IMG/VR virus record: IMGVR_UViG_3300045988_144754 | Source: a virus | DNA length: 64,000 nucleotides | Strand: one strand, 5' to 3' | Shown: in pieces, positions 12,925-64,000 of the stretch | Numbering within the stretch: position 1 is the first letter of the stretch | Layout: each line of letters opens with the position of its first letter | Translations under genes and position numbers: made by a program | The notes under the pieces: generated by a model | Database searches by the model: none | The model's input: the letters and a program-made list of their open reading frames with translations, nothing else | Told to the model about the DNA's origin: nothing

Positions 12925-13010
12925 TGTTGTTGCTTTTTTCGACTACAAAAGTAGGGAGAATTATTTTAATGGTACGGACATGAGTCAGAACAGCGAGAGC
13001 TGCACGGCTC
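12925..13010 (-). repeat. duplicated promoter module carrying a 3' relic of a PF01555-type methyltransferase gene (copy of 14822..14905)
   Basis: About 80% identity to the 3' end plus downstream region of 14877..15647. Encodes ...AVQLSLF* (compare AQLTLF*). Contains TACTTTTG, a TAnnTTTG -7 box. Confidence 0.55.
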
Positions 13011-14762: not shown

Positions 14763-14822
14763 ATGTGCTAACACTTTTCATCAAATGTGCTAACACTTTT
14801 CGTCAAATGTGCTAACACATTG
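14763..14822 (-). promoter_or_regulatory. three tandem 22-bp sites AATGTGctaaCAC (GTG-N4-CAC inverted-repeat cores)
   Basis: Three units at exact 22-bp spacing in the 5' leader of the operon starting at 14690. Same site family as 40356..40437. Confidence 0.5.
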
Positions 14823-14905
14823 CTTTTTTTCGACTACAAATGTAGGGAGAAAATTTTGAGCGGTGTGGACATAAATTCAGAACAGCGTGAGCTGTGCTTG
14901 CTCCA
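14822..14905 (-). promoter_or_regulatory. promoter module downstream of the methyltransferase gene (TACATTTG -7 box)
   Basis: Matches the Bacteroidetes TAnnTTTG consensus. Duplicated at 12925..13010. Confidence 0.45.
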
Positions 14906-15654: not shown

Positions 15655-16689
15655 TTACTTTTTCCTTATCTTTTCCATTTCCTCATTCTCCACCGTCAGG
15701 CGTTCCAGGTGCTCCAGGACGAGGGAATAACTCTGGTTGTTCACCTGGTCCTCCGTCAGACCGGCATACTTCTGCATGGTGGCGGTGGTGGCGGTGTATA
15801 TCTCCAAGGGCGTGGAGGGCTTCTGCGACTTGATGGGCTGCACCTTGAACACATGGCGATAACGATGAGCGAGGGTGTGCATCACGCCCGTCCACCAGAA
15901 GAGTATCACCTGCCATGCCGTTTCGGGGAAATCGCGGAAATAGGACTGGTTCGTCTCCCACTGGTTCAACTCATAGTGGAAGTCGTGTTTCACCATGCCC
16001 GTGTTGCTGTCCACATAGTCGGTCGTGCCGTTGAAGATGGTGGCGAGAAACATCGTCCGGGCAGCGTTCACGTTCTTCATCTGCCGCTGCATCTGCTCGT
16101 CGGTGAAAGTGCCGCGCTGCTGCATCTTCAAGAGGCTGTTGCTCAGTCGGGTGTAGGTCTGCATCATGTCGGAGGCGAAGCGATACTGCGCCCACGAAAA
16201 TCCGTCGAGGTCGTTGGCGGGTCCGCTGAACACCTTCTTGCGTCGCCACCATGCGCGGCGTCGCCGGATGACAGGGTAGGGGAAGCGGGTGAGAAAGGCA
16301 CCGTTCTCGTTGTCTATCCAGTCGAGCAAGCCTGCTCCCTGAGCGATGTACTCTGCCGACTTTCGGGCGTCGGTCTTCGCCTTGGGCGTCAGCCAATAGT
16401 TGATCTGCCACAGATACAGCGGAAAGGTGTCGTTGTCCTCGTCGTCCTGCATACGGCAGAGGTAATACTGCTCGCTGATGTCGAGGCGAGAGTCGGGCAG
16501 CGCCACTATCTCCAAGCCCGACAGGGCGAAGAAGATCGCCACCTTCACGTTGCGCATGTCGAAGGGGTGGTATCTGTCCTGCCGCTCCACCTGCTCGCGT
16601 ATCACGTCGGCTATCAGCTCCAGTTGTTCCGTAGTGCAGAGATTCCAATGTCGGGGAAGATGTAAGTCTATTTTTTTTGGATTGTTCAT
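15655..16689 (-). CDS. hypothetical protein
   Basis: 344-aa ORF. Confidence 0.45.
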   Translation of the reverse strand: MNNPKKIDLHLPRHWNLCTTEQLELIADVIREQVERQDRYHPFDMRNVKVAIFFALSGLEIVALPDSRLDISEQYYLCRMQDDEDNDTFPLYLWQINYWLTPKAKTDARKSAEYIAQGAGLLDWIDNENGAFLTRFPYPVIRRRRAWWRRKKVFSGPANDLDGFSWAQYRFASDMMQTYTRLSNSLLKMQQRGTFTDEQMQRQMKNVNAARTMFLATIFNGTTDYVDSNTGMVKHDFHYELNQWETNQSYFRDFPETAWQVILFWWTGVMHTLAHRYRHVFKVQPIKSQKPSTPLEIYTATTATMQKYAGLTEDQVNNQSYSLVLEHLERLTVENEEMEKIRKK

Positions 16690-16704
16690 TTCTACAGAAT
16701 CCTA

Positions 16705-16895
16705 AGTTTTTATCCCAAAAATGCCAAAATTGGACTATTTTAGTACAGAAAAAATCTAAAATTGTACGATTTTATCCAAAAAACGACAAAATTAGACTAT
16801 TTTCGTACAGAAAAAAATCCAAAATTGGACTATTTTATCCCAAAAACGCCAAAATTGGACTATTTTTAATCCAGAAAAATCCAAAAATGGATGGG
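16705..16895. repeat. tandem array of about six 30-bp units (three ~60-bp units)
   Basis: ccaaaaatgccaaaattggactatttt is repeated with minor variation. Sits between the endolysin stop and the next gene start. Confidence 0.7.
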
Positions 16896-17464: not shown

Positions 17465-17776
17465 AGTTTATCGTTTTCTTGTTCTGTTGTTAATAAATGT
17501 AGGGCAAAGATACGAAAACGCCATCCGTCGTGCGGGACAAAAATATCCCAGCTACTTTGTATGACAGACTGCGCACCGGGTTGACGCAGCCGGAAACAAT
17601 GGAAGCCGCAATGCTGCACTCTTCGTGGAGCAAAGCGGCTTCTGAAACGAAATGTTATCCCGAAAAGGCAAGACTACCATTTTGCTGACACCAGCAAAAT
17701 GATATTCGGCTCTTTTTACCTTTTTACTTTTTTGTCTTAGAAATCAGCAAGAAAACTCTTTTTACCTTTTTACTTT

Positions 17777-20376: not shown

Positions 20377-21285
20377 TTATCGCATGGCTTCCTCAAGAGT
20401 TCTAATATAAGGTATGGACTCGTTGCGCACAATATCAAGAAAAAGTTGTGCCGACCGCTTCATCGGCACGTCCTTCATCCAGTGGACATTGCTCATCAGG
20501 TCGTGCTCAAGCCCCACGATGGGACGGACGGTAAGGGTAGGGTGGTTCTTTAGGTACAATTTAGGCATGAAAGTGACACAATGGGATTCTTCCACGATGG
20601 CAAGGTCCTCGTTGGGGTCGCTCACAATACATTTTACATTCAGTTTCATAAAATCGTATTTCAGATATTTCTGAAAGGTATTGAACACCCTTTCGCCTAC
20701 ATCGGGCATAATCACGTTGTGCCTTAACAAATCCTCGTATGACACCTTTTCCAGTCGGGACAAAGGATGGGTGTCCCGCATCATCGCATAGATACGGAAA
20801 GGAATACAGGGCTCAGACTCGATGCCCTCATTCTTGTAGGCAGTGTTCAGAGTAAAGGCGAGGTCGAGGGAGTGGCTTCTCAACAGGTGGTTCAGACTCG
20901 TCGCCTTGGTAAACTCGGCGTTGATTCTTACATTCGGGTATCGTTCCATGAAGATAAGTGCCGCCATCCGAATATAAGGTGCGATAAAAGAGCCTACACC
21001 TATCCTCAGCTCGCCCACAAGGCAGTTGTTGAGCGCGTTGATTTGTTCCTTGCAGTCGTCCGTCTGCTTCAGTATCTCCTTGGCGCGAGGCAAAAGCGCC
21101 TCGCCACTCTCAGTGAGCATAATGCTGTGCGAGGTGCGGATAAGCAACTTGCACCTCAGTTCATCCTCAAGAGCCTTGATGTGTTGACTGATGGCGGACT
21201 GAGTGACACAACAGCGCATGGCTGCAATACTGAACGATAAAGTTTCGGCTACATATACAAATGAGCGCAAATGACGAAGTTCCAT
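20377..21285 (-). CDS. LysR-family transcriptional regulator
   Basis: N-terminal HTH MELRHLRSFVYVAETLSFSIAA...QSAISQHIKALEDELRCKLLIRTSHSIMLTESGEALL is a canonical LysR substrate-binding-type regulator. 302 aa. Confidence 0.8.
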   Translation of the reverse strand: MELRHLRSFVYVAETLSFSIAAMRCCVTQSAISQHIKALEDELRCKLLIRTSHSIMLTESGEALLPRAKEILKQTDDCKEQINALNNCLVGELRIGVGSFIAPYIRMAALIFMERYPNVRINAEFTKATSLNHLLRSHSLDLAFTLNTAYKNEGIESEPCIPFRIYAMMRDTHPLSRLEKVSYEDLLRHNVIMPDVGERVFNTFQKYLKYDFMKLNVKCIVSDPNEDLAIVEESHCVTFMPKLYLKNHPTLTVRPIVGLEHDLMSNVHWMKDVPMKRSAQLFLDIVRNESIPYIRTLEEAMR

Positions 21286-21390
21286 AATAGTTAAATGTTA
21301 ATAGACCAATAATAAATTCATGCCGCAAATTTACACAAAATATTTAAAGATAACAGAAACCTCGCATTAAAAATGCTAATATTATAATAA

Positions 21391-21433
21391 CAAAAAACTC
21401 GGTATCATAGACTTATTAGTCAAGATACCGAGT
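21391..21433 (-). terminator. rho-independent terminator on the minus strand
   Basis: 10-bp stem actcggtatc / gataccgagt. On the minus strand it is followed by TTTTTT. Sits downstream of 21658..22272. Confidence 0.55.
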
Positions 21434-21657
21434 CTTTGAATTTATAGATTTTAAATTGTAAATGTTTTGTCTTACAATTTAGAGCGATCAATCATCATCA
21501 ATCAATGTACTGGCGGCGCTTGTCGGAGTTGTACTTGCGTCTGTCGGCTTCACACTTGCAGTGCTCGTCCTTGCTGCAGTCGTTCTCGCAGCCGCTTTCT
21601 TTGCTGCTGATGTTCCTTGATCGGCGGAATCAGTCTCGCTCTTATCAGTTCCGCCCG

Positions 21658-25364: not shown

Positions 25365-25569
25365 ACGGGTTTAAAAATTAAGATTGTAAATGTATGTTAT
25401 CCTGTAAACAATTCTTTTTACCAAAGAATGTACTATGTCAAATGTTTCTGTTTGCAAAGGTAATAGATTGAAGGTAGGCAAAAAGGACAAAAAAACGCCG
25501 CTATCCTCACGGACAACGACGTTGACAACTAAATACTATTTCTGATATTTAACGAATATATCTTAAAAT

Positions 25570-27988: not shown

Positions 27989-28885
27989 TTAAATGTCAAA
28001 CTCATCACAATACTGGCGCATACGCTCGATGATGATGTTGCGTATCTTTTCGCCAATAATCTTTGCATTGGGATGCGGCGTGCCCGTCTTGCCATGGAAG
28101 CGAAGGTCAAGAATATGGCTCCAGTCGGAAAGCGTGTAGGTATATGCCACAACGGTATAGGTGTCGAGAGGCAGAACACCTCGTGCGTCCTGCGGCTTCA
28201 AGCCGGACTTCAGAAGTCGGTTGTAGCCCCACTCACACACTCGACATACAAGGCCATACACAAAGCGCTGCCAACGACTGCCTTCTGCGTGCCAATGCGG
28301 ACGTGCTATCTGCACGCCTCCCTTCTTCTCTAAATTGCAATAGCGTGTACTCTGTTCGGCGATGCTGTTGGGCGACGTGCGGTTGAGCTCACGCGATGTA
28401 CTTATCTGCGTGGTTACTACCATCGTCATGCGGATAATAGAGAATGCCTCCTCACACTCGTACTTCAGTGCCTTCTCGATAAACTCGTCTTCGCTGACAC
28501 CATACTGACTAAGCGCATTCATCATGTCCTCGTGCTCAAGCGCAAACTGAGTATTGGTACTGAACCATACCTTATGATTCTTGGTGGCATAGTTGATGTA
28601 AGGCGATGCCTCCAGATATGCCCAGATGTGGTTAGGAAGACCCCTTTCGTTGGGCATAAAGAAATAGACTGTGCCGTGACGAAACATCGAGCGATGTCCG
28701 CTGTCCCAGAAGTCCTTGCAACGTACCTCGTCACGCGTCTGGATGAAATTTTTCACTTCCTCTTCGGTCAATCCTTCTCCGGGCTGCTTGCCCTTTGCCT
28801 TGTAGCATATTCTGCCCACTCTTGCTATATGTTGTGCAAGAGTAGTCTGCTGCCACCATTCTACTTGTGGTTCGATGAATTTCAT
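27989..28885 (-). CDS. thyX: flavin-dependent thymidylate synthase (ThyX-like)
   Basis: GHRSMFRHG matches the ThyX HxSVxEH motif. RTSPNSIAEQSTRY matches the RHRxxSxxxxSxRY signature. Confidence 0.6.
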   Translation of the reverse strand: MKFIEPQVEWWQQTTLAQHIARVGRICYKAKGKQPGEGLTEEEVKNFIQTRDEVRCKDFWDSGHRSMFRHGTVYFFMPNERGLPNHIWAYLEASPYINYATKNHKVWFSTNTQFALEHEDMMNALSQYGVSEDEFIEKALKYECEEAFSIIRMTMVVTTQISTSRELNRTSPNSIAEQSTRYCNLEKKGGVQIARPHWHAEGSRWQRFVYGLVCRVCEWGYNRLLKSGLKPQDARGVLPLDTYTVVAYTYTLSDWSHILDLRFHGKTGTPHPNAKIIGEKIRNIIIERMRQYCDEFDI

Positions 28886-28927
28886 TATGGATGAATTTTA
28901 ATTTGTTATTTAAAAGATAGTGCATTC

Positions 28928-29434
28928 TCATATTTCCCGAAGTTTACACAAAACTCGTCGCTTCACCTTGTCGCACAAACTTTCGAGCGAGCCGTTGTTG
29001 AAGATTACTGCATCGTAGAAGAACAAGGACAGAAGATTGCGCTGTTTGTCGCGGTCTAAGCGTTCCTGCGACACCCCTCGGCGCAGTCGGGGTGCTTCCC
29101 ATGCCGTCACACAAATCTTGAATAGCTCGATGTCGGGGAATTTCTCGCACAAGGCTCTCAGTCCGTCCTCGTCAATGACGTAAATAGCCTTGTCCGTCAC
29201 CTGGTCGATGGTGGTCCAATACTCATAGCCGCCATACTGGGTGTATGCCAACATCTTATCGTGCGGTACGTCGCACTTCTCTACAAAATAATGCTGCCAA
29301 CCGTCAATCTCGCCTTCGCGCTTCGGACGTGTGGTATAAGAACATATCACTTTATAGCCGCCCAAGTCGGACAGCATCTGAGCCACAGTGTCCTTTCCTG
29401 CGCCACTCGGACCAGTAATTGTTATCAGTTTCAT
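28928..29434 (-). CDS. guanylate kinase-like nucleoside monophosphate kinase
   Basis: P-loop ITGPSGAGKDT plus TTRPKREGEIDGWQHYFV, the guanylate kinase signature. Confidence 0.65.
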   Translation of the reverse strand: MKLITITGPSGAGKDTVAQMLSDLGGYKVICSYTTRPKREGEIDGWQHYFVEKCDVPHDKMLAYTQYGGYEYWTTIDQVTDKAIYVIDEDGLRALCEKFPDIELFKICVTAWEAPRLRRGVSQERLDRDKQRNLLSLFFYDAVIFNNGSLESLCDKVKRRVLCKLREI

Positions 29435-29600: not shown

Positions 29601-30686
29601 TTAGCCATAGATTTCCTGCATATCCTCCCTCGAAAGTGTTACCTTGGCTCTTTTGCAAAACATGAAAAAAGTATTTGCTCTTACTCTGTCGTATTTTCCG
29701 AATGATTTCCAAGAAGCCACAAAGTCTGATTCACGGTGTCCGTGGTTGGCATCAAAGGGACGGAAACGAGAAACTCGCTTCCACATATCATAGCCTTCAT
29801 TCGAATCGATACTGTATAAAGACATTCCGCATTTAACCCAGTCATCATAGTTTTCCATAATGTCAACAGCATTCTGCTCTACCTTGCGTACAAGAACACG
29901 AGCTTTGCGCAAGATGATGTCGGGTGTATCATTCTCCCAATCACCAGTATAACCCGACCTCTGACCTGACGACGTATTTTCGTAATGCGTAGCGACTTTA
30001 GTTACAGGAATTAGCGATGGCAACACAGCCATATCTTCCAGTCCCTTATACGGCACCACATTTTCATTGATATATATATGTTCGGGATCATCCCATGAGG
30101 CGAAGCGCACACGTCCGATGTTGCTGCAAGCCTTGTCGAGCATGATGCCAATAGCGGCATATTCTTTGAGCAGAGCTTTGAACTGGTCTTTGTGTCTTTC
30201 GGGATAGGCCAGACGAACCAGACCGAAATAACCAGTACCAGAGCAAGACCGCATCATTAATCCTATCTCAGGACGAAAACGGGCAAGCTTAAATATACTT
30301 TCAAAATCAGTTATCTGAAGATTGTCCTGCAGATCAATGTCGATGGCGAGCCAGCCGGTGTGCTGTTTCAGGTGGCTCTCTCGTCGGCTAACCATGACGC
30401 GCTGCCCTGGATGGGTCAGACTGTCATCCTCGTAGAGAGCGAACAAGCCGCTAAGAGTTGCTCCAGGCAAATGCTTCTTGGTATCGATGTACTCGGGCAT
30501 CTTCTTTGCCTTGCTGCCAAATTCCTGACGCATAGCACGAAGGCGCTGCACATACGGCTTCCATCTGTCCGTAAGACAGAACTCGCGGATAGTCATCTGC
30601 TGAATGCACTCACCCGTCTCGCGGTCTACGAAACGACCATAAGCATCTTGGGCAGACTCATAAATAGAGCAAACTTCGTCAAACAT
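29601..30686 (-). CDS. primase-like replication protein (VirE_N / PriCT_2-like)
   Basis: ENYDDWVKCGMSLYS...EGYDMWKRVSRF resembles the primase C-terminal PriCT_2 domain. The N-terminal half resembles the Bacteroides VirE N-domain. Confidence 0.45.
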   Translation of the reverse strand: MFDEVCSIYESAQDAYGRFVDRETGECIQQMTIREFCLTDRWKPYVQRLRAMRQEFGSKAKKMPEYIDTKKHLPGATLSGLFALYEDDSLTHPGQRVMVSRRESHLKQHTGWLAIDIDLQDNLQITDFESIFKLARFRPEIGLMMRSCSGTGYFGLVRLAYPERHKDQFKALLKEYAAIGIMLDKACSNIGRVRFASWDDPEHIYINENVVPYKGLEDMAVLPSLIPVTKVATHYENTSSGQRSGYTGDWENDTPDIILRKARVLVRKVEQNAVDIMENYDDWVKCGMSLYSIDSNEGYDMWKRVSRFRPFDANHGHRESDFVASWKSFGKYDRVRANTFFMFCKRAKVTLSREDMQEIYG

Positions 30687-30710
30687 ATCTTAGTTATTAT
30701 ACTTAGTACT

Positions 30711-30790
30711 TTCGTTGCAAAATTAAGAAATAAAATCAAAATAACAAAATACCTGGGGTATTTTCCTGTATATTTAAGATATATTAAAAG
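30711..30790 (-). promoter_or_regulatory. conserved upstream module with palindromic operator aaaatacc-N3-ggtatttt (copy 1)
   Basis: About 85% identical to 63386..63472. Perfect 8-bp inverted arms at 30747..30764. Immediately upstream of the primase-like gene. Confidence 0.5.
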
Positions 30791-31580
30791 AAATTTAATC
30801 GAAATATCTCAGTTGTTTCACATAATAATAGGTATTTTTGAGTTATGAGAAGGAGAATAAAATAAAATGAGACCAAAATGAAGACTTTGGTCACATTTCA
30901 CAGTACAAAAGTCCCATTTTTCAAAAATGAGCCAAAAAGCAAAAGTCCACTCATCATATTTTTCTCCATTTTAGTCCCATGATTGTCCCACGATTATCAC
31001 CCTGTTGCCCACTTTTTTCTTGCTGTTACTTGCTTAATAATTAGCTTTTTATATTATTTTGGTCTCAAAATGATTATTTTTTTTATAAACTAATATGCGC
31101 ATAAGAAATAAAATATTTATCTAAAAGATATAAAATACAGCAAAATTGGCTCAATTCCGTCTTATGCTTTGCCCCATCTCAATCTTGTAAGTAACTTATT
31201 GTCTGATGTTTACGGCAAAGCCGTTAATGCTACTAACTTCTAAATTGGGGTTAGGGGCTTTTGATTTTAGGAGAATAAAAAAATTACCCAAAATTCTGAT
31301 ATAGTATGCTTAGGATTCATGAAAAATGCGACCAAGACCCCGAAATGCGACCAAAAATGCGAATAAAGTCCCAATAAATGAGTCAGTTATACCACTACCC
31401 TACCCTGTCACATTTATTTTTACGAAATGCGACCAGATTATTCGGATTTCGTACAGAGTATCGTTTGATTGTCGTTCATACCTCACAACGAAAGAAAAAG
31501 ACCGCCACGTTTCACAACGGAACGGTCTCATCAGAAAATACTAACTAATAAATAAGATAAAGAAAATAAAATTCGTAAAT

Positions 31581-34500
31581 TTAGCCCTTGCCTTTCATAA
31601 ACTGATTGGCCTTCGTCATACTGTCGTAAAGATTGCCACGGCCATACATGTCTATCTTTGCGTAGATAGGCTCATTCAGTCTGTCGAGGAGGGTCTTGAC
31701 GGCTTGCAGGAGAGCGGCTTGGCTGGCTGTGTTGTTAGCGATTACATTGTTGGCCGCTGGTGCGCCCAACAGAAGATTACCATTTTCTGCTGTAAAGCCC
31801 GCTGCTGCGTCCCCCATTGCGCTCGCAAGCTCGCCGACATTACCATTGTCAAATGCGCGTCTTGCTGCACGTCTGCCTGAATAGTTTCTGTCGTAGTTGA
31901 CGAGAGCCTTGAGGAGTGCCGGATTGTTCATCATCATGGCTTGCGTGGTTTCACGACCGATGACTATCTCTGGGCCATTCTCTGCTACAAGAGAAGGCTG
32001 ACCATTGATGGTAGTAGCCCTTGGAGTACTAATCATTTGCACGCCAGTTTTTTGTTTGCCGTCATCCTCTGTTGCCCAATAAATCTCGCCATTGTCGGCT
32101 ACAAAGGGCTTCAGGTCTTGCACGTTACCGCTGTCATACGTAAGCATACCTGAAACGAGCTTCGTGTTTTTAGATACAGAAGAAGATTTCTTACTGCTGC
32201 TGCTGAAAGCCGAATTAAGTGCCCACTGAAGCAAGCCCATCAGAGTAGCCATCACTCCTGCTGCAGCAATAGGGCCAGCAATAGGACCTAAGAACTCAAA
32301 ACACTTCGCCATTGCTCCCGCGATAGAGAATGTCACCTCTTGGTCGGTGCGGGCCGCGTCCGAGTTTGCCACATCCTGATTGTTCTGTTCTTTAGCTGCA
32401 AGATTGGTGGTCATAGCCGTCTGGGTCATATCAAGAATGGCATTCTGCGTTATCTCCGTACTCTTACTTTGCTCTTTATTGCCGGCATCGGTGATGTCAG
32501 TTATATTCTTGACACCTTGATGGGTTTCTTTCTCTCTATCCTTAGCTCCCTTTTTAACCTCTTTACTGAGTTCTTTCTGATGCTTCTTTTCTTTCTTGAG
32601 CTGCTTGGCTTTTTCCTTGTCGTCTCCAGTTTTCTTTGAAGAACCGCCAAGAGTGAATTTGGTATTCATCAAGTCACCCACAAGGCTGCCTCCGATACCG
32701 GCTACGGCATCGGACAGAGTAGTACCGCCTGTGATAGCACCAGCAGCGGCTGTTCCCGCTTGAGAGGCGGTATCAATACCGTAAGTCTCCTTGTTATAAT
32801 CATGGATAGTACCGTTTGGATGACGTTTCTTCCATGCAGCAGGAGGCTCAGTATTTGCGAGATTGTTGCCGTTGGCATCAATATACTGACCTCCTACGAC
32901 ACGTACCCACATCGGGTTTTCAGCCGTGCCCAGGTTGCGCCAATCCATATCAATGGTAGCGTTGGCGTTAGCATTGGCTCTCGCCGCATCAATACCAGGC
33001 TGTGCGTTAGCCTTACCTCGTTTGGCTCCGGCATCATTGATGGCTTTCCACATTTGGGTGTTCACGTCATTAAGCGCCATGTTAGCCCAAGACTCAATCA
33101 TAGACTTCAGGGCATTCTTGATACTTTCCTGTGCGCTTGACACGTCAGACTCCATCAGGGCGAAAGCTTTACCTACCTCTGCACCGAAGGTCTCAATAGG
33201 CTGCACGAGTTGCTGCATCTGCGAAAGGCGGTTCTTCATCGCCGTTGCCATCTGATTGGCATAGGCAAGCTCTGCCTCCTGACGAGCCTTGTCTGCTTCA
33301 TCGATGAGCTGCTTATTACGAGAGTTCTTCAGACAGAAGGCATAATAATCTTCTGCCATCTGCATCTTCATCTTCAGTAACTCCACCTCTGGGTCGGCGG
33401 TAAGGTCGGCAAGACCGAGGTTGGAGAGAAAGTTAGTGCGCTTGCCGAAGAGATTGCTTTCCTGCAGCATCTTGCGCAGCTTTGCCTGCTGATCGAGATT
33501 GCGTTTGTTGTTTTTCCAAAGAAAATCAGAAATCTTCTTGGATTCGTCGTATTCTTTTTTCTGTGCAGCAGTATATTCATCAACATATTGGATAAGCTTG
33601 TGATAGAATAGCTTTACATTCTGCTCAGTCTCGCCCATCAACGCAAGAAAGACAGAAGGCATCTGCATATAGTCTTTTCCAAATAAGAACTGAAGCAGCT
33701 TCTGCTTCTCCCCGTTTGTCTCAAAAAGTGCCGCCATTTGTGTGCGAGCCTTTTCCAAAACTTTTATAACATCAGCCCTATCTTTATTTAGCGTTTCAAG
33801 CGAAACGTCTGCAAAACGAGAACTTATTAATCCCAAGAAAGAATTTTGTTGAACTACGCCTGTGTAATCATGTTCAAGTAGCTCCTTCCGACGTTGCTCT
33901 ATGCGTTTTTGGATCACATTGCTTGAATCGTTCTCTTTTGATGAAGCATTCAGCCACATTCGGTCAAGATAAGCACGGTCGCGTTCATCTGACTTATAGC
34001 CGACAACTTGCCCTTTCTTAATTTTAGGCATTTGCTTTAATAAATCAGAACGAAGTTGTGCTACATTAGTATTCAATATGGCATTCTCAAGCATACGAGA
34101 CTGAGATTGTCCAAACTCATCGTCTTTTTCCTTGCGATATTTGTCTATTGATTTTTTAAATTTATCCCAAGTTTTATTTCCAAGGACAATAGACTGCTGC
34201 GCAGCTGCAAGGGCAGCATCCATTTGTATTTGAATGTCATTAACTGCCTGTTCCTGTAATTCTTTCTCTACACCCTTCTTTGAAAGATCCTCAACAGTAG
34301 CTGTCATTTGGCGCTTATAGAAATTCTTTATCTTTGTAATAAACTCAGATATGTTGTTGCGAGCATCATCTTCAGGAGTAGTTGTGTTACCTCCACCACC
34401 ACCGTTGCCGCCATAAACTTTTTGACCTACAACCTTTCCATCTCCTACATCAAGTTTAGCCCCAAACTTTTTTCGTAAGGCTTCTTCTTGTGCGTTTATT

Positions 34501-37500
34501 TCATCCAGTCTTGACTGAGCCTTATCTCGCTCGCGTTTCGCAGCCGCACGTTGTCCTGCCTGTCCGATTGCACCCTGTGCCTGCCCTGGCATCATAGCAC
34601 CACCAGAGGTCTGAATATATCTTCCATTAGGAGCGTTTACGTGTGTATTTGCATACGCATCTTCCTTTTTCTGCAAATCAAGAATAGCATCCACTTTCTC
34701 ACGACCCAATTCTGCCAACTTAGAACGAGCGCCCTCAAGTTCGTAGTAATCTTGTAGACGTTGAAAGTTATCCTCCCATGCCTTAGTGTTTTCCTTAACA
34801 ACACCCGTCTCTGTGTTAATTTTAGCGTTGAGGTTAGGAATAGCGCCATTCAATTTATTCATAGCTTCGAGGCGAAGATTCATTGACGCTGAAGTATCGT
34901 GCATAACATTATGCAGACGCTTCAACGATTCTTGTTCCTCCATAGCCTTGCGCTTACCTTCTTCTTGTACTTCGTTAAGCACGCGCTGTCCTGCGGATAA
35001 ACCGTTCAAAGAGGAAGAATATTCGGCAAGTTTTACGACCAATATACCCAATAATCCAATTAATCCTCCCATAATACCCGCCTGCTTGGCAAACGACAAG
35101 CCATTAAATGCAGCTTTAGTTTTGGCAACGACAGCACCCAGAGACAACATACCTCCTTCTAATCCCTGAACATAAGTAAGCAGTTTTGCAAAGCCACCCG
35201 CTAATCCTGCCATACTAATCATGGTGATCAACGTAGGAAGTATGCTCAATAGCATCTTTATAGAGGCAAAGAGCAGCGCTAACGCTACACGAACCTCTGT
35301 CATAAAACTCATACTGGTTGTAAGTTCCTTTACAACTTCAAACCAAGCTTTTGCTATATCACGAATAGGTCCCGAAGCCGCACTTGAAGAAACAAACTGT
35401 TTTTCAAGAAGGTTGTTAGCCCTCTCCATATACGCGGCTGCAGTTTCCTGCTGCATATTATACTCAACCGTAACAGCAGAACCTTCATTAAAAGCTTTAT
35501 TAGACTCCTTTACCGCTTTAGTAAGCATACCATTCTTGGCAGCCATTGTTACCATAGTTTTTACCAAACGAGCGCCATCTGAGCCTAAGTCCTTAAATAA
35601 GCCATCAAGAGCAAAAAGGTTTTTAGTTTCGCCCATTCTGCGGAAAATGGTTAAGATTGCATCCATACCTCTTCCACTCTCGATCATCTTCTTCAAAGAA
35701 CCAGAAGCTATACCGAGTGATTTTTCAATAGGGCTTGTACCTTTACGAAGCTCTACAACCAACTTTCCAAAAGCTGTTGCTGCAACTTCTGGCTCAAGGG
35801 CCATTGAGTCAACAGCCGCACCAAGAGCCAAAATATCTGGGGTTGTTAAAGCCGCCTGTTCGCCCAATGCAAGCATACGATTAGAGAAATCCACAATCTT
35901 TCCGCTTGTCGCTGTAGATGTAGATGCCAGTCGGAAAATCGCAGAGCCTGTTTTCAGCATAGCCTGCTCCACTCCATATTTATCCGCAAGACCCATCACC
36001 TCAGTAATCTTAGCAAGAGCCGTCAACGCTTCATCGCCCAAATCCTCTTTCAATGCGACGTTCACCTGGTCTGCGGCACGGACGAAGCCAGCTAAATTTT
36101 GAGTTGTAATACCAAGTTTAGCTCCCGCCCAGGCCAAGTTGTTCAGTTCTTCTATGCTTGTACGGGTATCGATTTTAGCAAGTTCCTTTGATAAATTTGC
36201 TACTTCGTCAGTTGTAGATAAAGCGACCTTACGAATATTAGTAAGCTGTTCGCTATACTTCATATTAAGACGAAACAAATCTATAAAGTACGTTTTAAGC
36301 TGATTGAACATCGCAAACAATCCGACATAAGCCGTAAGGTTCTTCAGTGCTGTCTGCCATGCGCTGCCATGCTTGTTGGCTGCACCCGTCGCCTCGTCGA
36401 TGTTCTTCTTCAGTTCTTTCATCGACTTCTGCTTGTCGGCAAACTCCTTGCTCTTGGTGTTAATTTGATTCAGTTCCTCCTCAAGCTGTTTGTAGGCACG
36501 GCGCAGTTCGTCGAGGGAAGCCTTGCCCTGCTTGCTACGAGTGAGAATGTCGTTAAGGGCACTCTGCGACATACGGGTGCCTTTGAGAGTCTGTTCGAGC
36601 ATGGAGTATTGGCGACGGAGGTCAGCTACATACTTGCTGCCAGCAGGGAGTTGCTGTATCTTCTGCTGTATCACTTCCATCGTGTGCTTGATGTCTTCGC
36701 CAGAAGCCCTGTTGGGTTCAGCCAACACCTGCTTCATCTGCTTCCAGCTCATTGATGCTTTCTGAGCCTTACCCGACACAGCCTCCAGTCGCTTCTCTAT
36801 CTCCTGAAGCTCTTTGTTGTATTGCGCAATGTCGCCAGTATTTCCTGTAGGAGTATTGTCGCGAGCCTCGGTAATAGTAGCCTTGGCTCGACGCAAATCG
36901 GATGCCGAAGCGTTTTGACTGGTTACGGTCTGGCGAGCTTCCACGATGCCCATCTTGCCCTTGCGTCTATCTTCCTCAGCTTCAAGCTGCTTCAATGTGG
37001 CGAGATTCTGCTGATAGCTGGCATCCGATTTTTGCAGCGAGCCCACGAGGTCGCGCTGTTGCTTGATAGCCTTGTCGAGCCACTGGTCTGACTGATTGGA
37101 AACGTTCTTTAGTCCGTCGGCTATCTTGACGTATTGACCTTCGATAAGACGCATTTGATCACCCACCTGCTTCATCTCGCCTCGTATCTGCTCTGCCCTC
37201 TTCAGGTCGGCATCCGATCCAGTGAGTTTAGCAAGAGCCGACTTGCCCGAACCCATAGCGCGGCGCAGGTCACGGAGCTTAGTATTGGTAAGGTCTTGCA
37301 CCACCTCACCCAGTCGCTTTGTGTCCTCGATATTGTCGCGCTGATACTGCGACAGGGCTTTTAGTACACTTTCCGATTGCTTACATTCGGCTGTGTTCGC
37401 TTTTCCTGCCGCCGTTAGTTCCTGAACGTGATTGGTATATTTCACGATAAGCTGGTCAAACTCCTCCATTACCTTTTTAGCGGTAGTGGCATTCGCAGTG

Positions 37501-37532
37501 ACGATTACTTTAGCTAATCTTTGGTTTGCCAT
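31581..37532 (-). CDS. tape-measure-like protein (1983 aa, coiled-coil with central TM segments)
   Basis: Very long Ala/Lys/Gln/Glu-rich coiled-coil ORF with hydrophobic segments around aa 740-830 and Gly-rich stretches. Its position upstream of the head genes is atypical for a tape measure. Confidence 0.45.
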   Translation of the reverse strand: MANQRLAKVIVTANATTAKKVMEEFDQLIVKYTNHVQELTAAGKANTAECKQSESVLKALSQYQRDNIEDTKRLGEVVQDLTNTKLRDLRRAMGSGKSALAKLTGSDADLKRAEQIRGEMKQVGDQMRLIEGQYVKIADGLKNVSNQSDQWLDKAIKQQRDLVGSLQKSDASYQQNLATLKQLEAEEDRRKGKMGIVEARQTVTSQNASASDLRRAKATITEARDNTPTGNTGDIAQYNKELQEIEKRLEAVSGKAQKASMSWKQMKQVLAEPNRASGEDIKHTMEVIQQKIQQLPAGSKYVADLRRQYSMLEQTLKGTRMSQSALNDILTRSKQGKASLDELRRAYKQLEEELNQINTKSKEFADKQKSMKELKKNIDEATGAANKHGSAWQTALKNLTAYVGLFAMFNQLKTYFIDLFRLNMKYSEQLTNIRKVALSTTDEVANLSKELAKIDTRTSIEELNNLAWAGAKLGITTQNLAGFVRAADQVNVALKEDLGDEALTALAKITEVMGLADKYGVEQAMLKTGSAIFRLASTSTATSGKIVDFSNRMLALGEQAALTTPDILALGAAVDSMALEPEVAATAFGKLVVELRKGTSPIEKSLGIASGSLKKMIESGRGMDAILTIFRRMGETKNLFALDGLFKDLGSDGARLVKTMVTMAAKNGMLTKAVKESNKAFNEGSAVTVEYNMQQETAAAYMERANNLLEKQFVSSSAASGPIRDIAKAWFEVVKELTTSMSFMTEVRVALALLFASIKMLLSILPTLITMISMAGLAGGFAKLLTYVQGLEGGMLSLGAVVAKTKAAFNGLSFAKQAGIMGGLIGLLGILVVKLAEYSSSLNGLSAGQRVLNEVQEEGKRKAMEEQESLKRLHNVMHDTSASMNLRLEAMNKLNGAIPNLNAKINTETGVVKENTKAWEDNFQRLQDYYELEGARSKLAELGREKVDAILDLQKKEDAYANTHVNAPNGRYIQTSGGAMMPGQAQGAIGQAGQRAAAKRERDKAQSRLDEINAQEEALRKKFGAKLDVGDGKVVGQKVYGGNGGGGGNTTTPEDDARNNISEFITKIKNFYKRQMTATVEDLSKKGVEKELQEQAVNDIQIQMDAALAAAQQSIVLGNKTWDKFKKSIDKYRKEKDDEFGQSQSRMLENAILNTNVAQLRSDLLKQMPKIKKGQVVGYKSDERDRAYLDRMWLNASSKENDSSNVIQKRIEQRRKELLEHDYTGVVQQNSFLGLISSRFADVSLETLNKDRADVIKVLEKARTQMAALFETNGEKQKLLQFLFGKDYMQMPSVFLALMGETEQNVKLFYHKLIQYVDEYTAAQKKEYDESKKISDFLWKNNKRNLDQQAKLRKMLQESNLFGKRTNFLSNLGLADLTADPEVELLKMKMQMAEDYYAFCLKNSRNKQLIDEADKARQEAELAYANQMATAMKNRLSQMQQLVQPIETFGAEVGKAFALMESDVSSAQESIKNALKSMIESWANMALNDVNTQMWKAINDAGAKRGKANAQPGIDAARANANANATIDMDWRNLGTAENPMWVRVVGGQYIDANGNNLANTEPPAAWKKRHPNGTIHDYNKETYGIDTASQAGTAAAGAITGGTTLSDAVAGIGGSLVGDLMNTKFTLGGSSKKTGDDKEKAKQLKKEKKHQKELSKEVKKGAKDREKETHQGVKNITDITDAGNKEQSKSTEITQNAILDMTQTAMTTNLAAKEQNNQDVANSDAARTDQEVTFSIAGAMAKCFEFLGPIAGPIAAAGVMATLMGLLQWALNSAFSSSSKKSSSVSKNTKLVSGMLTYDSGNVQDLKPFVADNGEIYWATEDDGKQKTGVQMISTPRATTINGQPSLVAENGPEIVIGRETTQAMMMNNPALLKALVNYDRNYSGRRAARRAFDNGNVGELASAMGDAAAGFTAENGNLLLGAPAANNVIANNTASQAALLQAVKTLLDRLNEPIYAKIDMYGRGNLYDSMTKANQFMKGKG

Positions 37533-39269: not shown

Positions 39270-39433
39270 TGTTGTGTTTGATTTTTAATGTGTGATGTAA
39301 ATGTGAAGTGTTATCCTGTTTTGATTAAGATACGATGCAAAGGTAATGAAAGGAGAAAAAACGGGTGGGACATACTTTTTTCTCCATGCGGACAGGCAGA
39401 GAGGTATGTCCCAATCGTTTTTGGATGATTTCG

Positions 39434-39441
39434 TAACTTTG
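39434..39441 (+). promoter_or_regulatory. Bacteroidetes-type -7 box TAACTTTG
   Basis: Exact TAnnTTTG about 27 nt upstream of the ATG at 39468. It lies in the divergent region between the two blocks. Confidence 0.4.
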
Positions 39442-39467
39442 CCGACGTAACAAACAACATAAACAAG

Positions 39468-40274
39468 ATGAGTCAGATAACACAAGGCACATTGGCACGC
39501 ATCGACAAATGGTTGGCGCAAGGCATCAGTATCGAGACGATGTTCCCGAACCTGGAGCAGCGCTATCGTATGCAGATATGTGCGGAATATTACAAAAGGT
39601 GGGTGCAGAACAAGGACATCGACCCTCGTACCACCTGTCGCAACATTGCCCGACGTGACTACGAGTTGTTCATCAACCAAGCCGCACAGGGCAACAAGGA
39701 GGCTGTGGCGATGATTCAGGCTCTGGGCATCACGGTGGACGATGAGGGTAATGTGAAAAATCGCACCATCACGGAGCTCAACAACGACGTGGCGGTGTGC
39801 AATCATATCATCCGCTTCTTCACCACCGACGAGAGTCCGCGCCACAAGGCCATGTACCTCAATTCGGCAGAATGGTTGATACGCACGGGCAAACAGCAGA
39901 ACAACGACCGTGCCGTGGATAAGGGTATGCAGGCCTTGGCCAACATATACGGCAACTTCATCGAGGAGAAGGATGCTACGGACGAGATGCCGGACATGAG
40001 TCGCATTGCCATCACGCAGGACGTGAGCATCGTAAAGCGCGACCGCATCAACTACACTGAGGAGGAGAAGCTGCGTCTGGCCCGCAAGTATGGTCTTACG
40101 GCAAAGGATATGCGGGATATAGCCGAAGAGGAATCCCTGCAGGCTGTAGGCAAAGACACTGAGCCGGACTACTTCGAGTACATGGAGCAGAAGGACGAGG
40201 AGGATGTGATTAGACACGGGTACATGAAAGAAAGCGAATTGACGGATTCGGAAAAGACGGATGATGCGGAATGA
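39468..40274 (+). CDS. hypothetical protein with acidic C-terminus
   Basis: 268-aa ORF. It is more protein-like than the longer antisense ORF 39285..40412. Confidence 0.45.
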   Translation: MSQITQGTLARIDKWLAQGISIETMFPNLEQRYRMQICAEYYKRWVQNKDIDPRTTCRNIARRDYELFINQAAQGNKEAVAMIQALGITVDDEGNVKNRTITELNNDVAVCNHIIRFFTTDESPRHKAMYLNSAEWLIRTGKQQNNDRAVDKGMQALANIYGNFIEEKDATDEMPDMSRIAITQDVSIVKRDRINYTEEEKLRLARKYGLTAKDMRDIAEEESLQAVGKDTEPDYFEYMEQKDEEDVIRHGYMKESELTDSEKTDDAE

Positions 40275-40355
40275 GTGAAAATGAAACAGAAGTATCTGTT
40301 TGATGCAAACAATGGGCATCGTTTGATATAAACAATGGGCATCGTTTGAAAAGCG

Positions 40356-40437
40356 AATGTGCCGACACATTAAAACGAAGGTGTTAGCACTTTTTGCCAA
40401 AAGTGTTAGCACATTTTACCAAAAGTGTTAGCACATG
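40356..40437 (+). promoter_or_regulatory. four GTG-N4-CAC inverted-repeat sites at about 23-bp spacing
   Basis: aATGTGccgaCACATt, then three GTGttagCAC units, upstream of the PAPS-reductase-family gene. Confidence 0.5.
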
Positions 40438-40540
40438 GGAAAAACGGAGGTTCGGCTGATTTCGCCAAAAGAGTCGAACCTCGGCAAATATATAGTGCAT
40501 AAATGCGCTATAAAAACACTATAAAAAGACTATAAAAAAT

Positions 40541-41392
40541 ATGTTAAACGAACAACTGCAGAAAAAGGTAAAACAGTCGATAAAACTCCTGCAGAGTGTG
40601 CAGAAGCGATACGACGGCGAGATAGAGATAGCATACTCGGGCGGTAAGGACTCCGACGTGCTCCTTCAACTGGCGAAAGAGGCCGGCATCAAGTATCGGG
40701 CCATATACAAGAATACGACCATCGACCCGCCAGGCACGTTGGGGCACGTCAGGGAGATGGGAGTGGAGATACTGAGGGCCAAGACTTCCTTCTTTCATCT
40801 CGTGGCGCAGAAAGGATTTCCATCTCGCTTTACTCGTTTCTGTTGTGAAAAACTGAAGGAATATAAGGTGCTCGACAAAAGTATTATCGGCGTGCGCAAG
40901 GCTGAGAGCCGGAAACGAAACGAAATATACAACGAGCCGACAGAGTGCCGATACTACGGAGCGAAGAAAGAGGAAAATCACGTAGAACAGATTTATCCTA
41001 TTCTGGAATGGACCGATGAGGACGTGCGCGACTTCATTATAGACAGAAAGTTGAAACTCGCACCCATTTATTACAATTCGGGGGGGCAAATCGACGTGTC
41101 GAAACGTCTCGGCTGCATGTGCTGCCCTCTCGCATCAAGGCGCAAGCGCATTATCGAGTTTCAGAAATATCCCAAGATAGCAAAGGCGTATCTCCGTGCG
41201 GGGCAACGATTTATGGAAACGCATCCTGACAGCAAGGCGTGCCAGAGGTACGACAACGTTTACGAATGGTTCACCCGCGACGTGTTTTACAGCTCCAATG
41301 CAGATTGGAACAAGGTAAGCACAGGGCTGTTCGGTAAGCCGGACTTCAAGAAGTTCTTGGAGGATAAGTTCGGTATTGACTTGACATTATAA
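40541..41392 (+). CDS. PAPS reductase-family protein (phosphoadenosine phosphosulfate reductase / DndC-like PP-loop ATPase)
   Basis: PP-loop SGGKDS, a RFCCEKLKE motif, and ILEWTDEDVRDFI, the PLxxWTxxDVWxYI signature of the CysH family. Confidence 0.7.
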   Translation: MLNEQLQKKVKQSIKLLQSVQKRYDGEIEIAYSGGKDSDVLLQLAKEAGIKYRAIYKNTTIDPPGTLGHVREMGVEILRAKTSFFHLVAQKGFPSRFTRFCCEKLKEYKVLDKSIIGVRKAESRKRNEIYNEPTECRYYGAKKEENHVEQIYPILEWTDEDVRDFIIDRKLKLAPIYYNSGGQIDVSKRLGCMCCPLASRRKRIIEFQKYPKIAKAYLRAGQRFMETHPDSKACQRYDNVYEWFTRDVFYSSNADWNKVSTGLFGKPDFKKFLEDKFGIDLTL

Positions 41393-46565: not shown

Positions 46566-47192
46566 TTACAAGAACACTGGCAGTCTGCGCCACACGCCAC
46601 CATTCGGCTGAAACTCCTCCTGCCATTCCCGATATTCCACTTCAAACTTTGCACCATAAAAAGCCAAACCTTTGAGATGAAGGCTCTCGATGAATTTCTC
46701 CTGCTCCTCACGAGTCATAAAGTCATTAGGCATGAGGATGATGCGGTTGCTACGGACATGGATGAAGAACTCTGGCGCAAAATCTCGCTTCGTCAGCATC
46801 TTTTTAATCGCCGCATAGTCGCACTTGTTTTTAGGCGAAAAGTTTATGCCATCCACATAGGTAAAGAGTTGATTGTAGTGGACCATTACTTCCTCGTTGA
46901 GAAACATCCATCTACCAGAAGTGTAGATATATAGCTGCTTGATGTTAGGATAATCATGGCGCAGGTGTGAGCATATATCTATGATACCTGTCACATAGAA
47001 TGGGTCTCCACCAGTGAGCATAACGGTATGTGCAGCCTTCAGCTCCTCTACGGTAGCCACTGGCACCGTATCGAGGTCGTACTGCTTGTTGCAGCAAAAC
47101 GGACAAGAGTTACCACACCATCTGTTAATCATCAAATGAATGGCTCCCTTATCGGCTCCCGGCTCGTCAGTATATTTACGTTTTGTTTCCAT
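46566..47192 (-). CDS. radical SAM 4Fe-4S protein (NrdG/QueE/PflA-activase-like)
   Basis: CGNSCPFC is a CxxxCxxC cluster, followed by TGGDPF. Confidence 0.6.
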   Translation of the reverse strand: METKRKYTDEPGADKGAIHLMINRWCGNSCPFCCNKQYDLDTVPVATVEELKAAHTVMLTGGDPFYVTGIIDICSHLRHDYPNIKQLYIYTSGRWMFLNEEVMVHYNQLFTYVDGINFSPKNKCDYAAIKKMLTKRDFAPEFFIHVRSNRIILMPNDFMTREEQEKFIESLHLKGLAFYGAKFEVEYREWQEEFQPNGGVWRRLPVFL

Positions 47193-50932: not shown

Positions 50933-50948
50933 TAATTATTTCTCCTTT

Positions 50949-51062: not shown

Positions 51063-51076
51063 AGATGTGGGTCATG

Positions 51077-55043: not shown

Positions 55044-55062
55044 AATTTATTTCTCATTTTAT

Positions 55063-62861: not shown

Positions 62862-63251
62862 TCACTCTTCCTCTGGGAAGAGTGACGGATTAGCCAGCTT
62901 CCGCTTCGCCTCCATCGCAGCCATCTCCTTGATGCGTTCCGACCGCAGGCGAAACTCCTCGGCCTTGAGTGCTTTCTTCAGTTCAGCGCGATCGACTCGG
63001 TTGTTGGCCTGTACGACACGGATGAAACGCTCCCTGCCCAACTTTTTGTAAGATGGAATAAACTCGCTGTCTATCAGGTCGGCTGGCTCATTGGGCGGTA
63101 TGTACGTCCAGTTTCGGTTGCCCTCCTTGTTGACAACATAAAAGGTATGTTGCTTGCCATCGTCGCCTTTCACGACGATACCGCCCGTATGTCGGGCGAT
63201 GCTGAAGCAGGAAGTCATCCAACTCTCCTTGGTCATTAATATACTTTTCAT
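62862..63251 (-). CDS. hypothetical protein
   Basis: 129-aa ORF. Preceded by the conserved promoter/operator module at 63386..63472. Confidence 0.4.
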   Translation of the reverse strand: MKSILMTKESWMTSCFSIARHTGGIVVKGDDGKQHTFYVVNKEGNRNWTYIPPNEPADLIDSEFIPSYKKLGRERFIRVVQANNRVDRAELKKALKAEEFRLRSERIKEMAAMEAKRKLANPSLFPEEE

Positions 63252-63385
63252 GCCGAAAACTCCTCACATTTTTCTATCCGTTGATACTGCAGGTCAGACA
63301 AACGAGGCAAGACAATGAAGTCTGCGATAAGTTGTAGTGGTTTTTGTTTACCATATTGTAATATCTCGAATATGTTATTATTTAT

Positions 63386-63472
63386 TTCGTTGCAAATTTA
63401 AGAAATAAAGTCGTAATCACAAAATATCTCGGGTATTTTGTTGTACTTTTCGGTGATATTTAAGATATTTTT
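63386..63472 (-). promoter_or_regulatory. conserved upstream module with palindromic operator (copy 2)
   Basis: aaaatatc-tcg-ggtatttt at 63421..63439. Upstream of 62862..63251. Confidence 0.5.
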
Positions 63473-64000
63473 AACAATAGTCCGTTGATAAGTCAGAAAT
63501 GTGGTTAGCAGATATGTATATAATAGCAATACGCCCTGAAGGAGCAGAAGCTCTTACAGGGCGTACTGATTGTGCCCATAACAATCAAGGGCTAAGAGCT
63601 GCTGCCCTTTCAGGACGTGTAGGGAAGAACAACTTTATCACTACCCTTCTCGGTAGAAGTCGTCATTATCGCTAAACCGCGACTTGCTTGTGTCCTTCTT
63701 CTCGTCATCACCTGGCTCGGGCTTGCCGAACAGTGTGAGCAAACAGGCAATGACGAAAGTACACAACATATAGATAAAAAACAAATACACGATGAAATTC
63801 AACATACGCGTCCTAATCTTCGTCGCTGCCGTGGCTGCTCACGAGCGACGACTTGACATCATCATACATAGCCATTTCCAACTTCTCTCCGTCGTAATGA
63901 CCAACAGCCAAGAGCTGTCCGTTCTCCTCGGTGGCAGAGTCGGCGGTGGTAGCAGACGCACGGATGATGAGAATGTCGAACTCACGTATCAGATTAGGCA

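Follow-up and report, generated by a model that had tools for sequence, protein, structure and literature searches.

The stretch of DNA studied here, referred to below as the window, comprises 64,000 nucleotides of the IMG/VR virus record IMGVR_UViG_3300045988_144754. The phage genes of the window include a 1983-aa tape-measure gene (31581-37532), a tail-fibre-like gene, a GH108 endolysin and a holin, together with a weak terminase match, and no integrase or other lysogeny module was seen in it. Searches for Rfam families and tRNAs gave no match in the window, and 10 kb of it submitted to megablast matched no deposited phage. IMG/VR itself contained near-identical contigs of 57-101 kb, as well as 80 loci with homologs of the primase described below (57-99% identity). 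Since homologs of one gene carry the source labels Prevotella and Bacteroidales, and given the type of promoter found, we infer a Bacteroidales host. The best explanation of the record is an uncultured gut phage, a Bacteroidales siphophage of about 100 kb.

Two minus-strand operons of the window are of concern here, and the coordinates of all features are collected in Table 1. Operon A starts with a primase-like gene, followed by guanylate-kinase-like and ThyX genes, and constitutes a primase/nucleotide-metabolism unit. Operon B is made of small genes without assigned function, methylases, HNH and YopX, and paralogous or duplicated small genes (families D4-D7, D10, D11, D15) are abundant in it. 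Its first ORF is a remnant: the Cys-rich product counts 54 aa in close relatives, and a 58-nt frameshifting deletion in the window leaves 26 aa. In relatives, the ATG of the following 129-aa gene overlaps the stop codon of this small ORF. A look-up of the exact 129-aa protein (62862..63251) showed that it is not on record.

Table 1. Coordinates of the two modules, of the sites within them and of the neighbouring or potentially related genes in the window.
Feature	Position	Strand	Remarks
LysR-type regulator	20377..21285	-	302 aa; candidate partner; HTH_1 2.5e-20, LysR_substrate 4.5e-26
Primase-like gene	29601..30686	-	BT4734-like_N + PriCT_2 (Pfam, PHROGs); first gene of operon A
Module copy A	30685..30788	-	predicted promoter cassette and 5' leader of the primase operon; local alignment, repeat family D8
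Site D, copy A	30685..30697	.	ATAACTAAGATAT; 5' leader, overlaps primase ATG; centre 64 bp downstream of site M
-7 box, copy A	30718..30725	-	TAATTTTG (TAnnTTTG); primase ATG 31 nt further on
-33 box, copy A	30745..30748	-	TTTG; 19 nt upstream of the -7 box
Site M, copy A	30746..30764	.	palindrome AAAATACC-N3-GGTATTTT, perfect; core ATACCCCAGGTAT at 30749-30761
Site U, copy A	30770..30782	.	ATATCTTAAATAT; centre 21 bp upstream of site M
Terminator-like hairpin	30871..30892	-	some 80 nt upstream of copy A; coincides with two inverted AAATGNGACCAAA repeats
129-aa ORF	62862..63251	-	no assigned function; second gene of operon B
Cys-rich small ORF (remnant)	63274..63354	-	26 aa; first ORF past copy B
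Module copy B	63361..63474	-	predicted promoter cassette and 5' leader of the small-ORF/early operon; alignment, repeat family D8
Site D, copy B	63361..63373	.	ATATTCGAGATAT; 5' leader; centre 63 bp downstream of site M
-7 box, copy B	63393..63400	-	TAAATTTG (TAnnTTTG); ATG 63354 38 nt further on
-33 box, copy B	63420..63423	-	TTTG; 19-nt spacer
Site M, copy B	63421..63439	.	one mismatch; core ATACCCGAGATAT at 63424-63436
Site U, copy B	63456..63468	.	ATATCTTAAATAT, identical to copy A; centre 32 bp upstream of site M
Terminator-like hairpin	63532..63546	-	about 60 nt upstream of copy B

Each operon is preceded by one copy of a common module. A repeat finder detected it independently as family D8 (30703-30788 vs 63378-63463, 78% identity without gaps), MAFFT gave 81% identity between the copies, and a gapped local alignment of the minus strand, 30788..30685 against 63474..63361, showed 87 identical residues out of 98 aligned positions, i.e., 89%. 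The score of this alignment was 94, compared with 20.2±2.8 for shuffled sequences (maximum 31). Judged from these alignments, the homology of copies A and B, as paralogs, is beyond doubt. The identity of about 85% given in the preliminary description was thus a fair estimate, and the module proved slightly longer than first delimited, as it extends into the 5' leader. Copy B differs from copy A by an 11-nt insertion between sites U and M, and its leader by four compensating indels amounting to a net change of 1 nt. The genes assigned to the two copies at the outset proved right for copy A, which reaches the ATG of the primase gene (30686). Copy B had been assigned to 62862..63251, whose ATG is about 110 nt away from its end; the start codon directly behind it is ATG 63354, that of the Cys-rich small ORF.

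In the window and in close relatives, exact matching of the core finds the module twice. Its 24-nt core TTTCGTTGCAAANTTAAGAAATAAA occurs exactly two times in the window (0 expected), and no further good match to the palindrome was found in the 64 kb beyond the two copies. The same scan for the exact core gave two matches in each of four near-identical IMG/VR contigs, two of them of about 100 kb and the others of 72 and 91 kb. A third module was found by exact-core matching neither in the window nor in the two close-relative contigs of about 100 kb, and relative loci covering the 8 kb past the right end of the window contain no further copy. The number of two core copies in close relatives, as far as exact matches go, is unfavourable to the preliminary description, which had named the absence of further copies as a point against it; degenerate copies are conceivable in the roughly 36 kb of this genome that lie outside the window.

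Both copies resemble promoters of Bacteroidota. In the account that PMC7366714 gives of Bayley et al. (2000), the primary sigma factor of Bacteroidota (sigma-ABfr) has as its consensus TTTG at -33 and TAnnTTTG at -7, and Bacteroides leaders are mostly 23-32 nt long (PMC7366714). The modules have in common with Bacteroidota sigma-A promoters both boxes, an AT-rich spacer of 19 nt (the usual length being about 19-21 nt), the correct orientation and a short leader, the distance from the -7 box to the ATG (31 nt in A, 38 nt in B) being in line with the short leaders of Bacteroides. Beyond this general consensus, the modules present a conserved TTTATTTCT before the -7 box and an ATA-N7-TAT at -42, the start site being here a predicted one. 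The pattern TTTG-N19-TAnnTTTG has 2 matches in 64 kb, with 0.28 expected, and both are the modules (30718-30748 and 63393-63423); the -7 box alone is present at many other intergenic sites of the window. That each copy represents a promoter of the Bacteroidota sigma-A type, and that this putative promoter was duplicated, is well supported by these features. Also, as a terminator-like hairpin lies 60-80 nt upstream of each copy, each would start a transcription unit of its own.

A second promoter class, TGTCC-N22-TAnnTTTG, was detected 7 times in the window, with 0.02 expected. These sites precede the tail-fibre-like gene, the endolysin, a 562-aa gene, an HU-like gene and other non-replication genes. 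As this class is clearly different, the module appears to define a distinct regulatory class, which we term 'host-consensus'. The gene content of the two operons (replication functions and small unknowns), together with the separate TGTCC class at non-replication genes, leads us to infer that the promoters of the module are early ones. The initial proposal of a duplicated early promoter carrying a helix-turn-helix (HTH) site is partly supported: the duplicated promoter was borne out by the boxes, the leader distance and the restriction to two occurrences in 64 kb, and the HTH site is no more than plausible, the observations below speaking both for and against it.

The palindrome, named site M, was correctly described at the outset as 8-bp inverted arms with a 3-nt gap, perfect in one copy and with one mismatch in the other. 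The centres of its half-sites are 11 bp apart, and the outer triplets of its ATA-N7-TAT core 10 bp apart. It overlaps the -33 TTTG by 3 nt, and its centre lies at about -41 to -43 with respect to the predicted start. Taken alone, one perfect 8-bp inverted repeat is insignificant and weak evidence, being within chance for 64 kb: perfect inverted repeats with 8-bp arms and a spacer of at most 10 nt number 26 in the window, vs 10.6±4 in Markov-1 random sequence. Among ten distinct module sequences of close relatives, copy A of the window is the only one with a perfect 8+8 pairing, and the others pair 5-7 positions out of 8. The ATA or TAT arm of site M is lost in 4 of these 10 sequences, sites U and D being better kept. 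Substitutions in close relatives fall in the arms of the palindrome, which vary more than any other part of the module, and site M is the least conserved of the three sites; no variation was seen in the -7 region, in the TTTATTTCT before it or in a ATATCTTAAATA located upstream. A search of 185k bacterial genomes with AAAATACC-N3-GGTATTTTG gave no sign of a host regulon, the matches listed being scattered over unrelated phyla, and was uninformative. The idea of a GAGATATT half-site (9 occurrences in the window, 3 of them near the modules) was abandoned as too weak.

The core of the palindrome, ATAC-CCCAG-GTAT, is one instance of ATA-N7-TAT, and each module contains three such sites, U, M and D. 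With the -7 box centred at -7, site U would lie at about -62 to -64 in copy A and about -73 in copy B (overall 62-75 bp upstream), and site D at about +22/+23, in the transcribed leader, counting from the predicted start. The spacings between centres, 21 and 64 bp in A, 32 and 63 bp in B, are near 2, 3 and 6 helical turns. The helical phase is thus kept despite the 11-nt insertion and the four compensating indels of the leader. In the window, groups of at least three ATA-N7-TAT within 130 bp were found only at the two modules and in one unrelated tandem repeat, and the combination of ATA-N7-TAT, 19-24 nt and TAnnTTTG only at the two modules, with 0.05 expected. The exact 13-mer of site U is likewise present in the window only at the two modules. 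The probability of at least 6 sites is about 0.001 in random sequence of the composition of the module; all six sites are confined to two homologous modules, and features common to A and B are for this reason non-independent observations. Furthermore, AT-rich promoter DNA abounds in ATA and TAT words, and a general enrichment of odd spacers (N3, N5, N7) was observed.

Comparison with more distant relatives extends beyond the two copies. Of 60 distinct promoter sequences anchored on their -7 boxes, 24, which come from four primase lineages, have ATA-N7-TAT 33-36 bp upstream of the box, counts that kinship inflates; the flanks cannot be aligned between these four lineages. Besides that of the window group, the core takes the form ATATCCCAAATAT in the L055 type, ATAGCTTACCTAT and variants in the lineage named G1, and ATAGCCGAACTAT in G2; in a fifth lineage, the left half ATAG alone is kept, at the same offset. 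The half-sites are ATAC/GTAT in the window and ATAG/CTAT in sister lineages. With respect to the window, both arms of the L055 type have changed symmetrically, from AATAC..GTATT to AATAT..ATATT. Over all sequences, positions 4 and 10 of ATA-N7-TAT are complementary in 27 of 56 cases, against 25% by chance, which is above chance without amounting to a rule.

The association of the two promoters was also encountered outside the window group. In the L055-type contig 3300013901_000008, the promoter of a homologous Cys-rich small ORF has the same core, TTATTTCTTAAnTTTGCA, and 21 bp further upstream in that promoter stands ATATCCCAAACAT, one mismatch away from ATA-N7-TAT. This related pair of promoters indicates that the pairing of primase and small-ORF promoters is not peculiar to the genome of the window. 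The L055-type dyad, as an exact 17-mer, occurs once per genome, and the imperfect second copy was found by means of the promoter core and the small ORF. A scan for a second copy with the lineage-specific 14-mer TAGGACACACCAAT returned mostly noise, the pattern being too short, and the window contains no homolog of the G1-lineage gene that stands behind a related promoter. Taken together, the arrangement of the sites within the module and their placement across lineages make a regulatory role likely.

We favour the following reading, to which we give a probability of about 0.55: the module would be a duplicated strong promoter of host type, at which a dimeric regulator, probably acting as a repressor, co-controls both operons through sites U, M and D. 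The host RNA polymerase would fire both promoters early, without help from the phage. The three 13-bp ATA-N7-TAT sites, situated on the same face of the helix, would then be bound by a dimeric protein in a higher-order form, and this protein would co-regulate the primase operon and the small-ORF operon. Cooperative binding or looping is suggested by the presence of three sites in phase. The likeliest action of the protein would be a shut-off, in which the -33 box is occluded and sites U, M and D are bridged (looping or roadblock). We favour repression over activation for three reasons: a core promoter that already matches the consensus, the overlap of site M with the -33 box and the position of site D past the start. 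The part of the regulator may fall to an early protein that lacks annotation, to a host factor or to the LysR-type protein of the phage.

The cognate small HTH protein anticipated in the preliminary description did not turn up in the window, where a 302-aa LysR-type protein is the sole recognisable transcription factor. Pfam and PHROGs searches revealed no HTH protein in either operon, and the 800-bp gap upstream of copy A contains no credible ORF for a divergent small regulator. The LysR-type protein is 63-99% identical across relatives, in part on contigs of 82-107 kb; a look-up of the protein returned short contigs only, and tblastn gave no match of at least 60% identity in deposited phages, only weaker ones.

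Several other readings were weighed against regulation by a dimeric protein. The one we take most seriously, even though we consider it rather doubtful, is a plain duplicated strong promoter without a dedicated regulator, in which ATA-N7-TAT would be a by-product of AT-rich, UP-element-like DNA at the -33 TTTG and the likeness of A and B would come simply from common descent. It agrees with the free variation of the palindrome arms in close relatives next to an invariant -7 region and TTTATTTCT, and with the limitation to two copies per genome in close relatives. A perfect 8-bp inverted repeat is in any case expected by chance in the window, ATA-Nodd-TAT is enriched generally in these AT-rich regions, and the lack of an HTH regulator in the two operons (Pfam, PHROGs) points in the same direction. 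However, a by-product would hardly be expected to form three helically phased sites per copy, with a phase that survives an 11-nt insertion and indels, nor to keep a fixed offset of 33-36 bp in four lineages with flanks diverged past alignment. The symmetric change of both arms in the L055-type lineage also argues against it, as does site D, downstream of the start, where a UP-like element has no role. The palindrome could, alternatively, act as a hairpin, either as a weak intrinsic terminator or insulator against upstream read-through or as a cruciform. On the transcribed strand, AAAAUACC-cca-GGUAUUUU is followed by the T-rich UUGUUAUUUUGAUUUUAUUU, and the hairpin of copy B is more stable than shuffled sequences (z = -2.6 to -3.2). 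We nevertheless regard this possibility as very remote: the stem contains no more than 2-3 G-C pairs and its computed stability is only -5.5 to -7.8 kcal/mol, the hairpin of copy A does not stand out (z = -0.2 to -1.1), and the terminator scan skips the palindrome and calls better hairpins 60-80 nt upstream. The mismatches of the relatives do not regularly give wobble pairs on one of the strands, and the palindrome precedes the predicted start. The RNA hairpin or terminator reading was thus rejected on account of its low stability.

Control of both promoters by the LysR-type protein of the phage (20377-21285) in the LTTR manner, with U as recognition site near -65 and M as activation site near -40, is a more specific proposal and seems improbable to us. 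This protein is the only recognisable transcription factor of the window and is conserved (63-99%), and in copy A sites U (about -62/-64) and M (about -41/-43) fall close to the positions, about -65 and -40, occupied by the sites of BenM/CatM-type promoters. The half-sites ATAC/GTAT and ATAG/CTAT, moreover, resemble the BenM and OxyR boxes. Yet the box of the module is ATAC-N5-GTAT or ATAT-N5-ATAT (T-N9-A) and not the 15-bp ATAC-N7-GTAT (T-N11-A), the distance between U and M is not fixed (21 bp in A vs 32 bp in B), and site D, at about +22, is without LTTR counterpart. The gene shares its strand with copy A, 9 kb away, and is not divergent, its own upstream region (21286-21500) is devoid of ATA-N7-TAT, and a consensus promoter would hardly need an activator. 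Quite improbable, too, is a mainly recombinational role, according to which the module would be a portable terminator-plus-promoter cassette providing short homology for the shuffling of modules between phages; a promoter function would be compatible with it. Each copy indeed lies downstream of a terminator-like hairpin, operon B is rich in duplicated small genes, and in relative 133708 the similarity to the window stops about 25 nt upstream of site U of copy B. The spacing from copy to copy also differs by about 4 kb among close relatives (loci L002 and L003 vs the window). Against such a role, there are two copies per genome and no dispersed family, individual small genes are not flanked by copies, and the copies are 11% diverged in addition to their indels, so that a recent exchange is not evident.

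Several known systems come close to the modules. In lambda (OR/OL, bound by CI and Cro) and in P22, early promoters with multiple operators are repressed by dimeric HTH proteins. As in these phages, the dyad sites of the module overlap an upstream promoter element, are several per promoter and are reused at two separate, here presumably early, promoters, an arrangement by which two operons are switched jointly; unlike them, the modules have no adjoining repressor gene and no divergent promoter pair. In addition, the sites of the module are shorter (13-19 bp) and 21-64 bp apart, in phase, which brings them nearer to the looping systems Gal, Lac and Deo than to the lambda operators. LTTR-controlled regions comprise an RBS near -65 and an ABS near -40, with T-N11-A boxes such as ATAC-N7-GTAT for BenM/CatM and ATAG-N7-CTAT for OxyR. 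The genome of the window shares with such systems a LysR-type gene, sites at about -63 and -42 in copy A and similar half-sites, but differs from them by an inner spacer of 5 bp instead of 7, an unfixed U-M distance, a third site at +22 and a distant, non-divergent gene. The PeSL (promoter-early stem-loop) cassettes of T4-type phages, reportedly described by Arbiol et al. in 2010 and said to have been proposed as an aid to module shuffling, are likewise repeated early-promoter cassettes located by a stem-loop and bordering small variable genes. The modules differ from them in their number (two copies vs dozens), in their consensus of Bacteroidota type and in that individual ORFs are not flanked.

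A shared operator-bearing promoter on two operons is a standard arrangement in phages, of a kind already well known, and the module brings nothing new in principle unless its regulator proves unusual. Very little is known of how gut Bacteroidales phages other than the crAss-like ones programme their transcription, and the deposited phage records searched contain no close relative of this family. The module offers a handle on such a programme: two promoters predicted for the unmodified host polymerase, six candidate operators and the contrasting TGTCC-N22-TAnnTTTG class. We would also mention, as a conjecture to which we attach little probability, that the phased sites may form an early switch common to the whole family, run by the core LysR-type regulator of the family through a shortened N5 box (N5 in place of N7), beside the TGTCC class, which would serve middle or late genes. 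If this were true, it would represent a complete temporal programme encoded by the phage and based on the host sigma-A, in a group without any cultured member. On a more practical level, such a compact consensus promoter could serve as a strong part in Bacteroides/Prevotella genetics.

A pattern scan of the window points to a second promoter class, TGTCC-N22-TAnnTTTG, of which seven exact matches were found against 0.02 expected. In these predicted promoters, a TGTCC box located upstream at a fixed distance takes the place of the -33 TTTG, a logic similar to that of the activator-dependent middle promoters of T4. The genes downstream are tail-fibre-like, endolysin, HU-like and other non-replication genes.

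Two promoters of this class diverge from each other within a 375-aa ORF which is probably not a gene, and 39270-40540 as a whole resembles a regulatory hub separating the leftward from the rightward gene blocks. Two loci each contain three copies of GTGTTAGCAC with a period of exactly 22 bp (6 matches in the window vs 0.16 expected), and these triples appear to constitute another duplicated regulatory module. The CTATAAAAA tandem is the sole ATA-N7-TAT cluster (the operator-like core) in the window besides copies A and B of the duplicated promoter module, which head the primase operon and the operon of the Cys-rich small ORF, respectively.

Coordinates of regulatory elements, genes and duplicated segments in the window
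Feature	Position	Strand	Remark
TGTCC-N22-TAnnTTTG	2564-2598, 12946-12980, 14837-14871, 17505-17539, 25455-25489, 39338-39372	-	exact match
TGTCC-N22-TAnnTTTG	39407-39441	+	exact match
GTGTTAGCAC triple, locus 1	14765-14818	-	in leader after TGTCC promoter 14837-14871
GTGTTAGCAC triple, locus 2	40381-40434	+	upstream of plus-strand gene block beginning at 40541
CTATAAAAA x3 tandem, 11-bp period (ATAAATGCGCTATAAAAACACTATAAAAAGACTAT)	40499-40533		directly before PAPS-reductase-like gene at 40541
ORF, 375 aa, GTG start	39285-40412	-	no family match
LysR-type regulator, full-length	20377-21285	-	HTH_1 + LysR_substrate
Cys-rich small ORF, disrupted	63274-63354	-	54 aa in relatives, motif CxxC...CIGGxYC...HKxYxQYQ
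Duplicated segments, operon B	49606-49783 vs 51667-51846
Duplicated segments, operon B	50929-51075 vs 55040-55129 and 55442-55507
Duplicated segments, operon B	54403-54649 vs 55641-55887
Acyl-carrier protein	3814-4062	-	adjoins beta-ketoacyl-ACP synthase gene
Beta-ketoacyl-ACP synthase	4059-5408	-
ThyX and guanylate-kinase-like genes	27989-29434	-
PAPS-reductase-family protein	40541-41392	+
Radical-SAM-like protein	46566-47192	-

The LysR-type gene lies near the endolysin gene, among neighbours mostly of unknown function. Its protein is kept at 63-99% identity across relatives, some of the homologues lying on contigs of 82-107 kb, so the gene seems to belong to the core set of this phage family. 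This is an unusual feature in a large siphophage, given that the window yielded no lysogeny genes.

The non-coding gap of about 800 bp that separates the tape-measure gene from the primase promoter contains an iteron-like repeat, AAATG(N)GACCAAA, which occurs in both orientations and at five to seven sites (30863-31437; 5 matches at ≤1 mismatch vs 0.53 expected), and this region is a candidate replication origin. The terminator-like hairpin upstream of copy A (30871-30892) consists of an inverted pair of these repeats. Another repeat, of about 30-60 nt with AAAATTGGACTATTTT, is present in four copies (16698-16879) in the gap that separates 15655-16689 from the endolysin gene, with a weaker fifth copy at 31417-31457.

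In relatives of the G1 primase lineage (loci L218, L232, L238, L264, L268 and about 30 others), the module's promoter core, here around a match to TTATTTCTTAAATTTGCA, would drive a conserved, non-coding-looking transcript with a CGTCTTCGGAAG hairpin at its start. Between the -33 and -7 positions stands a GATACACCGTATC palindrome, and a conserved hairpin is also located upstream. The transcript may be a phage small RNA; no DNA-level counterpart of it in the window was detected by blastn.

The Cys-rich small ORF is broken in the window by a 58-nt frameshifting deletion, and it is kept as the first gene after a related promoter in a lineage at about 67% primase identity. Its match to DUF7631 is weak and sub-threshold, and it matches no other family. 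Further along the operon downstream of copy B, several segments are 70-90% identical and duplicate gene ends and junctions, which points to paralogous small genes and past local duplication. Contig 155282 of a relative and this genome differ by about 4 kb in how far apart copies A and B lie.

Finally, the phage carries metabolic genes (beta-ketoacyl-ACP synthase, acyl-carrier protein, radical-SAM-like, PAPS-reductase-family, ThyX and guanylate-kinase-like) and at least four DNA methyltransferases.
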